From the NCBI GenBank assembly GCA_965153355.1, contig OZ231126.1, forward strand, positions 39,804,001 through 39,868,000: a stretch of DNA of 64,000 nt. Reading direction: 5' to 3'. Source of the stretch: Flaccisagitta enflata. Its lineage: Eukaryota. The position numbers and the translations under genes are program-made. Under the pieces are notes generated by a model. It saw only the letters and a program-made list of their open reading frames with translations. It had not been told where the DNA came from and ran no database searches. Below are positions 17,541 through 18,214 of this stretch, piece by piece. Each line of letters begins with the position of its first letter. Within the stretch, counting starts at the first letter, position 1.

Positions 17541-18214
17541 TCAGATCTTTGTCTCCGAGTCTTGAACGCCTGGCTGCCAGGTGACGGATGAGGATGACGG
17601 GGTGACGGCGGTGGTGACGCTGACCAAAGGCAATCCCAGCTCCAAGTCGTAGGGACGCCGACGGGAGTGACGTGTGACGGATGACGGGTGACGATTGCCG
17701 ATGAGTGGCGGCGAGTGACGGGTGACGACGACTGGCAGTGAGTGTCGGGTGACGAGCGGAACCGAGTGTCTTTTCGCTTTGTCCTCCGCGTCGTTGATAA
17801 AATTGCCTGCATTGTCATGTATGATGACATTGTCGTGTTTGTCATTCATGAGGACATCGTCGCGTTCGTCATTCATTCCGATGACGTCGACTCTTGAGTT
17901 TTGGTGATGAGGATGAAAAGGAGGATGATTATGACATAACTGAGATTCGAGTCTGATTGTATGTAAAGGAAAGTTGGTTTTCAGCGACGAGCTTCTTCGC
18001 AAAAGTTCGCAGGCCGCGGTGACGGCAACAGCGTCCTTCGCAGTGACGGTGTTGTGGTCATCTCGGGTGACATTACGAGTGATGTCACGGGTGAAGTTTT
18101 GGGTAACTGGGGTGTGGGTGACAGCGCCATCCAAAGTAGAGATGGTTAGATTTTTTGTGACAGCCGAGTGTTGAAAGACTGGGAGACAATCCTCATGTCA
18201 CATGACGTCGTAAC
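17541..18214 (-). CDS. CLAM terminal exon: GYDVM-TGA, then 218 in-frame codons ending QDSETKI
   Basis: Long open frame with VTR-rich repeats and a class I PDZ-type C-terminus. Confidence 0.75.

Follow-up and report, generated by a model that had tools for sequence, protein, structure and literature searches.

Genes and other features of the locus

The window analysed here, that is, the whole stretch of 64,000 nucleotides from Flaccisagitta enflata, carries on its minus strand, from about 43,935 to 32,415, a series of carboxylesterase-family exons, three of which contain Pfam PF00135 matches (E 1.3e-6 to 5.8e-10). With a home-made profile of 578 positions, built from 40 of 220 esterase-fold matches, ten exon pieces could be placed at profile positions 76-542, and at the nucleophile motif the GeSaGa of the profile aligned with GAEAGA, Ser being changed to Glu, so that the catalytic serine is replaced. 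No close relative was found among the 220 matches; the top named match for one exon is 'NLGN [Mytilus edulis]', a name taken from the source, with about 65% identity over about 51 residues. Together with the membrane-span exon described below, the Pfam matches and the mapping on the profile support a neuroligin-like, cholinesterase-fold membrane protein, in line with an earlier note on this DNA, which had referred to neuroligins. As far as these sequence features indicate, the gene codes for a cholinesterase-like adhesion molecule of the non-catalytic type, with the layout of a neuroligin and a single membrane span.

Two other genes accompany it. The 8.2-kb intron that separates exon Y from exon S of the esterase-fold gene harbours, on the plus strand at 29413-31606, a gene with a VWA domain (PF00092 match at 31046-31606, E 2.4e-9) and a hydrophobic segment at its C-terminus. 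Downstream of the esterase-fold gene, its nearest neighbour in the same orientation is a fatty-acid desaturase gene (6659-10398, minus), with PF00487 matches at 6694-7014 and a second exon (10398-10194) carrying a 12-residue motif. The window is also rich in repeats: a 297-bp unit present 4.3 times (89% matches) at 20776-22070 fills much of the intron between the membrane-span exon and exon A and has long open frames on the minus strand, microsatellites of the (AATG)n/(TCAT)n type at 36160-36365, 45230-45330, 46380-46480 and 49430-50270 generate spurious open reading frames of up to 273 codons (..HSFIHSFI..), and an interspersed repeat with the translation ..LY(K/N)RLCPSV(R/G)(P/L)SV.. recurs many times, for example at 27400-27470, 41560-41650, 54600-54700 and 58950-59050, with one copy about 310 nt past the stop that follows ETKI (17190-17235, minus).

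The rebuilt exon chain

The exons that follow the esterase fold were sought with an exon finder that combined a pyrimidine count for acceptors and a donor weight matrix with approximate weights with a codon table from the homology-defined exons of the window, which rests on 703-786 codons. Known exons of the esterase, desaturase and VWA genes made up most of its top candidates, a fair control, though some of these were training data. The resulting features are collected in Table 1.

Table 1. Features of the 3′ part of the gene and the paths into its last exon (a slash marks a splice junction; the upstream exons of the paths are predictions)
Feature	Position	Strand	Details
Exon Y	32535-32415	minus	phase 2 to 0; last carboxylesterase-profile exon; with splice sites
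Exon S	24208-24065	minus	phase 0 to 0; end of fold (MHFW..VPQM) and short stalk
TM exon (predicted membrane span)	22857-22760	minus	phase 0 to 2; acceptor acag/GCT, donor CAG/gtagga
Exon A	20654-20551	minus	phase 2 to 1; juxtamembrane cytoplasmic; single G at end
Exon B (probable, maybe cassette)	19392-19238	minus	phase 1 to 0; 155 nt
Upstream strong acceptor 18236 (tttctttttgtattag/TTT)	18238-18236	minus	pyrimidines 17/20
Strong acceptor tttttccttcttag/	intron end 18215, exon start 18214	minus	pyrimidines 18/20 before AG
The same acceptor 18214 (ttttttccttcttag/G)	18216-18214	minus	phase 1, giving G-YDVM, then TGA
Palindrome TCATGT-G-ACATGA	18205-18193		13 bp, spans in-frame TGA
In-frame TGA	18200-18198	minus	next base C at 18197
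Weaker acceptor 18178 (ttgtctcccag/TC)	18180-18178	minus	pyrimidines 11/20; 36 nt downstream of 18214, same frame
218-codon extension	18197-17544	minus	same frame as in-frame TGA; C-terminus ...QDSETKI
In-frame 27-bp repeats of extension	17812-17876 and 17688-17770	minus	
E-T-K-I codons	17555-17544	minus	class I PDZ-type C-terminus (S/T-x-hydrophobic) by sequence
Terminal TGA of extension	17543-17541	minus	
Path A to 18214			..GYDVM, TGA, then 218 open codons
Path A to B to 18236			12-residue run to same TGA, then same 218 codons to DSETKI
Path A to 18178			stop skipped; membrane span to ETKI 247 residues
Path A to B to 18191			stop skipped too; acceptor poor
Path A to 18236			different frame; early end
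Path A to B to 18214			different frame; early end, ..RLSQKI
Path A to B to 18178			different frame; early end

Exon Y is a weak profile match (positions 507-542) that also figures on the list of the exon finder. Exon S, third among the collapsed candidates with a score of 21.1, has a textbook acceptor (cacag/ATG) and donor (CAG/gtgagt), and ends the fold with a segment of the MHFW..VPQM type, the usual end of the esterase fold. The next exon has the highest hydrophobicity (3.16) of the non-repetitive 21-residue windows between 17000 and 33000 and contains TGA in its other two frames; the membrane span is assigned to it from hydrophobicity and splice phase alone. A second hydrophobic segment, at 31726-31664, was rejected, being devoid of an acceptor and located within the 3′ end of the gene on the opposite strand.

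Exon A is delimited by very strong sites (acceptor ctcctttttcttcag/, donor TTAG/gtaagc) and is open solely in the frame dictated by the phase of the membrane-span exon, with a neutral codon score (-0.10 per codon). Exon B, with acceptor cctcatttag/ and donor ATG/gtaatt, ranks 11 among the 40 collapsed candidates of the window and reaches a codon score of +9.0 only in the frame that matches exon A; it is probably a real exon that would shift the phase to 0. The phases listed in Table 1 run on without a break from Y to B, and for every rebuilt exon the frame set by its neighbour is either the sole open one or the one with the highest score. If the donor of exon B were left unused (19392-19199, minus), 14 more codons would lead to an end in ..SLLVHV, of the hydrophobic-x-hydrophobic kind, as a possible further C-terminus.

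Two shorter connections were also considered. Splicing of the membrane-span exon directly into 18214 would give phase 2 and the reading R-LRRHVT, with the in-frame TGA of Table 1 out of frame, and it was dropped once exon A had been found; splicing of the same exon into an acceptor at 17952 was discarded as well, since the open reading frame shows its coding signal from its 5′ end onwards.

The last exon and the paths leading into it

The earlier note had described a TGA followed by C, in frame with 218 open codons that end in ETKI, and these coordinates were recovered exactly, the C-terminus fitting by its sequence the S/T-x-hydrophobic pattern of class I PDZ ligands that had been ascribed to it. 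The leading G of the G-Y-D-V-M that precedes the stop is supplied by exon A, whose last codon is split G/GT, and the frame proposed for acceptor 18214 is the same one that the rebuilt exon A gives. Acceptor 18236, entered in phase 0, which is the frame of the open reading frame, leads through 12 residues to the same stop. Since A to 18214 and B to 18236 both enter this frame, the TGA is in frame by way of both strong acceptors: the 155 nt of exon B and the 22 nt between the two acceptors add up to 177 nt, or 59 codons.

The third acceptor, 18178, sits in frame inside the second open reading frame, seven codons past the TGA, and its crude score is 1.5 vs 5.2 for 18214, so that the strong acceptors 18214 and 18236 should, on these scores and pyrimidine counts, outcompete it. 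The proposal that it could serve to skip the stop holds from exon A and fails from exon B, after which it leads to an early termination.

The palindrome that surrounds the TGA, to which attention had also been drawn, is present, and its special status is lost when it is counted: there are 34 perfect 6+1+6 palindromes across the window, which puts the one at the TGA at chance level. With this frequency and a loop of only 1 nt, its reading as an RNA hairpin was rejected. It also holds a second TGA (18195-18193) in a different frame, and because of these two TGAs and of a stop at about 18149 in the third frame, all frames entered at 18214 end within 22 codons.

As for the stop itself, its context is UGA-C, with CAUGAG as the downstream bases. 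This context is enriched in the readthrough gene sets of insects and a crustacean, and a C after TGA is in itself common in the window (250 of the 1403 TGAs on the minus strand). A CUAG-type motif is absent after the UGA, and no stimulatory RNA structure emerged: a stretch of 136 nt that begins at the acceptor and reaches beyond the stop folds no better than its shuffled versions (z -0.42), 62 of 200 of which do equally well.

Coding character of the extension

The long open reading frames of the window are mostly artefacts of repeats, and controls based on codon usage were therefore needed. When the sequence was shuffled with its dinucleotides preserved, the frame of the extension stayed free of stops in 30 of 5000 trials, and at least one of the sense frames did so in 97 of 5000. 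The last third of it (17845-17541, about 100 codons) runs through a CGTCAC-rich repeat and is open in all three sense frames, so the signal of openness comes mostly from the first two thirds; as the CGTCAC-rich 27-bp repeats keep all three frames open, openness alone is only moderate evidence. CGTCAC and its variants are over-represented at 18651-18719 and 17544-17845 (minus), with 11 copies in the open reading frame and a related 24-bp tandem repeat in the upstream intron (18651-18719). They contain CRE-like half sites (ACGTCA) and might be a cluster of binding sites or a mere minisatellite.

Codon usage is stronger evidence. With the 786-codon table the extension scores 0.326 per codon against a mean of 0.166 (sd 0.041) in shuffled sequences, a value that none of 3000 shuffles reaches, and likewise none of 3000 equals the gap between its frame and the second-best one. 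Its codon score is the second highest among the 263 open reading frames of at least 60 codons in the window, and among 13 windows of 30 codons its frame comes out ahead in 11, among them the four that directly follow the TGA; the lead is clearest in the 5′ part, which is free of repeats. By contrast, the score of the 12 codons that precede the TGA is that of non-coding sequence (-0.145 per codon). The composition by codon position departs in the same direction as in the known exons; the corresponding chi-square is weak, at the 94th percentile of random windows, a null that is inflated by trinucleotide microsatellites. The translated extension looks disordered and is rich in V, T, H, R, D and N; it has no Pfam family, and the Atlas offered no usable match for it, with low recognition (900). 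The extension thus has a frame-specific codon usage that resembles that of the known exons of the window, and we consider it very probably a real coding sequence.

Relatives and environmental near-copies

A search for relatives of the extension among 1.84 billion representative proteins gave two matches, one near-identical and one of low complexity. Among proteins of near length only the P0121 cluster was found and among shorter proteins none, and at the level of DNA neither an exact 25-mer scan nor a comparison of the back-translated protein with contigs from metagenomes, genomes and viruses yielded anything. Four marine metagenome or metatranscriptome runs contained 9-18% of the sampled words, a figure that says nothing on expression or habitat, and one poly-A RNA run of 'organism A' came up beside them.

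The two environmental proteins are P0123, a single continuous call of 232 residues on a contig of 1047 bp, and P0121, of 197 residues on a contig of 943 bp. P0123 is identical to the extension in 214 of 218 residues (98%), with neither gap, indel nor stop, all four differences being residue changes. Its upstream part reads M-LYIFSLLGYDVM-W-HEDC.., with W at the position of the TGA of the window (..GYDVM-W-HEDC..). This W may stand for TGG or for TGA, since the collection includes gene calls made with TGA read as W. By reading, P0121 equals P0123 over the residues that they have in common, and its first residue corresponds to the first start codon after the position of the TGA, which is what a table-11 call would give if a TGA were present there. 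These calls are weakly consistent with a scenario in which a table-4 model was applied to just one of the contigs, the longer one with the higher A+T content; it takes the G+C of the window as a stand-in for that of the contigs, along with a Prodigal rule. The leading M of P0123 could be the last ATG of exon B, as in a spliced cDNA, or the result of a TAG-to-TTG change in genomic DNA. As regards the shortness of these environmental contigs, the copy of the LY(K/N)RLCPSV repeat that follows the ETKI stop may be their break point.

Discussion

The reading that we tentatively propose, as possible rather than probable, is that readthrough of the UGA-C produces the long tail. The 218-codon frame would encode a long tail on the cytoplasmic side and would lie in the final exon of a gene whose product, like a neuroligin, is made up of fold, short stalk, one span and tail. 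The chain from Y through S, the membrane-span exon and A, with or without B, would enter the last exon by way of A into 18214 or of B into 18236, and the ribosome would reach the UGA-C 5 or 12 codons into it. The majority of ribosomes would terminate there, leaving a protein that ends in ..YDVM, 40 or 99 residues beyond the membrane span, and a minority would decode the UGA as sense, adding 219 residues with ETKI, a predicted class I PDZ-type ligand, at their end. The use of 18214 and 18236, the readthrough and the binding to a scaffold are all steps that we infer from the sequence. The more specific proposal is that one leaky UGA-C would gate the 219-residue tail with the sole PDZ ligand, both splice forms meeting the same stop in the same frame, in such a way that the coupling to a scaffold would be set at translation and not at splicing; this is a shade more doubtful than readthrough as such.

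The arrival in frame 0 by both strong-acceptor routes favours those readings in which translation passes the position of the stop. According to PMC5100048, explanations by alternative splicing are unbiased towards frame 0, and readthrough requires it. The reference list of PMC4999894 includes the paper of Li and Rice (1993), whose title names as a readthrough signal the single C that follows UGA. Readthrough, as the earlier note had suggested, is plausible at this locus, and two ordinary explanations stand alongside it.

One of them, which we regard as somewhat unlikely, would obtain the long tail through the splicing of exon A (phase 1) to 18178, the TGA being intronic and 18214 and 18236 giving short-tailed forms or remaining unused. 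The cytoplasmic part would then be uninterrupted for 247 residues up to ETKI, and the site has some of the requisites of an acceptor: a short pyrimidine run (ttgtctccc) precedes its cag, a branch-point-like tgtgac lies 18 nt upstream (a match by eye to the consensus yUnAy), and open frames usually extend a few codons into an intron before meeting a stop, here seven. PMC5100048 treats a 3′ splice site predicted within the second open reading frame as the usual alternative to readthrough, with a recent nonsense change as a further rival, and since such an acceptor lies in frame seven codons into the extension, the curation criteria described there would prefer alternative splicing. However, the pyrimidine count and crude score of 18178 are low, the 60 nt that precede it contain three other AGs, and it would work only with exon B skipped, given that the path through B ends after 10 residues; moreover, under this splicing the fact that both strong-acceptor routes fall in the frame of the open reading frame would amount to two one-in-three coincidences. 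The other explanation, to our mind unlikely, needs no special mechanism to account for the frames, the coding signal and the strong acceptors: a continuous tail exon whose codon is normally TGG (Trp), with no regulated bypass, in which case the TGA of the assembly would reflect a nonsense allele, a substitution of recent date or an erroneous base. A single transition separates TGG from TGA, and P0123 was called as one gapless protein with W at that very position, but that W may itself denote a TGA in a collection that holds calls of this type, P0121, with the same sequence over the common residues, begins just as if the TGA were present, and the scenario based on G+C, a weak one that leans on the Prodigal formula, would have table 4 tried on the longer contig only.

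The remaining explanations deny either the translation of the extension or the ordinary decoding of its stop. The extension might be untranslated, as a 3′ UTR or intergenic stretch held open by its CGTCAC-rich, minisatellite-like composition, or as the decaying remnant of a former tail exon, and the openness of its last 100 codons in three sense frames, the 11 copies of CGTCAC and the related repeat of the upstream intron would suit such an origin, as would the lack of a Pfam family, the low recognition in the Atlas, the lack of relatives among the 1.84 billion representatives beyond near-identical copies, and the fact that every one of the four differences from P0123 changes a residue. Against this, the codon usage is specific to the frame beyond what composition yields (none of 3000 shuffles), the frame signal peaks in the non-repetitive first part and few shuffles stay open, the variant P0123 crosses 218 codons with neither indel nor stop, and a cytoplasmic tail is to be expected in a membrane protein of the cholinesterase-like adhesion family, all of which makes an untranslated extension quite improbable. 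That the UGA might encode selenocysteine has the in-frame UGA alone in its favour, and is extremely improbable: the search for a SECIS element that the earlier note had recommended found no SECIS family at 14000-19500 on either strand with E up to 10, where the four weak matches all belong to unrelated families, and nothing at the gathering score in the whole window.

If the stop is indeed read through, it would be the ribosome that chooses between a membrane-anchored adhesion protein with and one without a scaffold-docking tail. The gene would then offer a clear functional example of readthrough in a family of synaptic adhesion proteins, perhaps outside the insects, to which most of the known cases belong. 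If acceptor 18178 or a TGG allele provides the explanation, the last exon is an ordinary one, and it would counsel caution against calling recoding from a stop near a weak acceptor or from a single assembly base. Either way, the rebuilt exon chain defines the exact junctions.

Comparison with known systems

Like the gene of the window, neuroligins and gliotactin have a carboxylesterase fold without the catalytic serine and one membrane span C-terminal to the fold; the catalytic Ser, which in neuroligins is replaced by Gly, is Glu here. Their tails end in S/T-x-hydrophobic, as the long tail proposed here would with ETKI, but behind an in-frame stop, and the tail of the window gene is also set apart by its lack of detectable similarity to any other protein. 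At the level of splicing, the locus resembles frame-preserving 3′ splice sites of the tandem or alternative kind, in that its predicted acceptors 18214 and 18178 lie 36 nt apart in the same frame and 18236 with exon B restores the frame.

With the readthrough genes of insects and a crustacean (Jungreis et al.; PMC5100048) the window gene shares a stop followed by a long frame-0 open reading frame with what looks like a coding signature. According to that source, abundant readthrough is seen only in insects and one crustacean, and the candidates are backed by codon evolution across several species or by ribosome profiling, whereas the window gene rests on codon usage in a single genome; they were, in addition, filtered against a 3′ splice site in the second open reading frame and against recent nonsense changes, and the window gene has the 18178 acceptor. 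The Drosophila readthrough extensions described in PMC4999894 are long, disordered and rich in motifs, and the extension reported here is also long and disordered-looking.

Motifs for PDZ binding carried by readthrough are not new in kind, since several validated extensions bear predicted ones in the table of PMC4999894, namely those of OPRK1, OPRL1, MTCH2 and LDHB (LIG_PDZ_Class_1), and AQP4ex has been described as a readthrough form with a changed anchoring or docking property (PMC6444679). The extensions of these five measure 7-30 residues, in contrast to the 219 proposed here, and the PDZ motifs of the table are, like ETKI, predictions. In all of them, as we propose for this gene, the C-terminal docking of the protein differs between the normal and the readthrough form.
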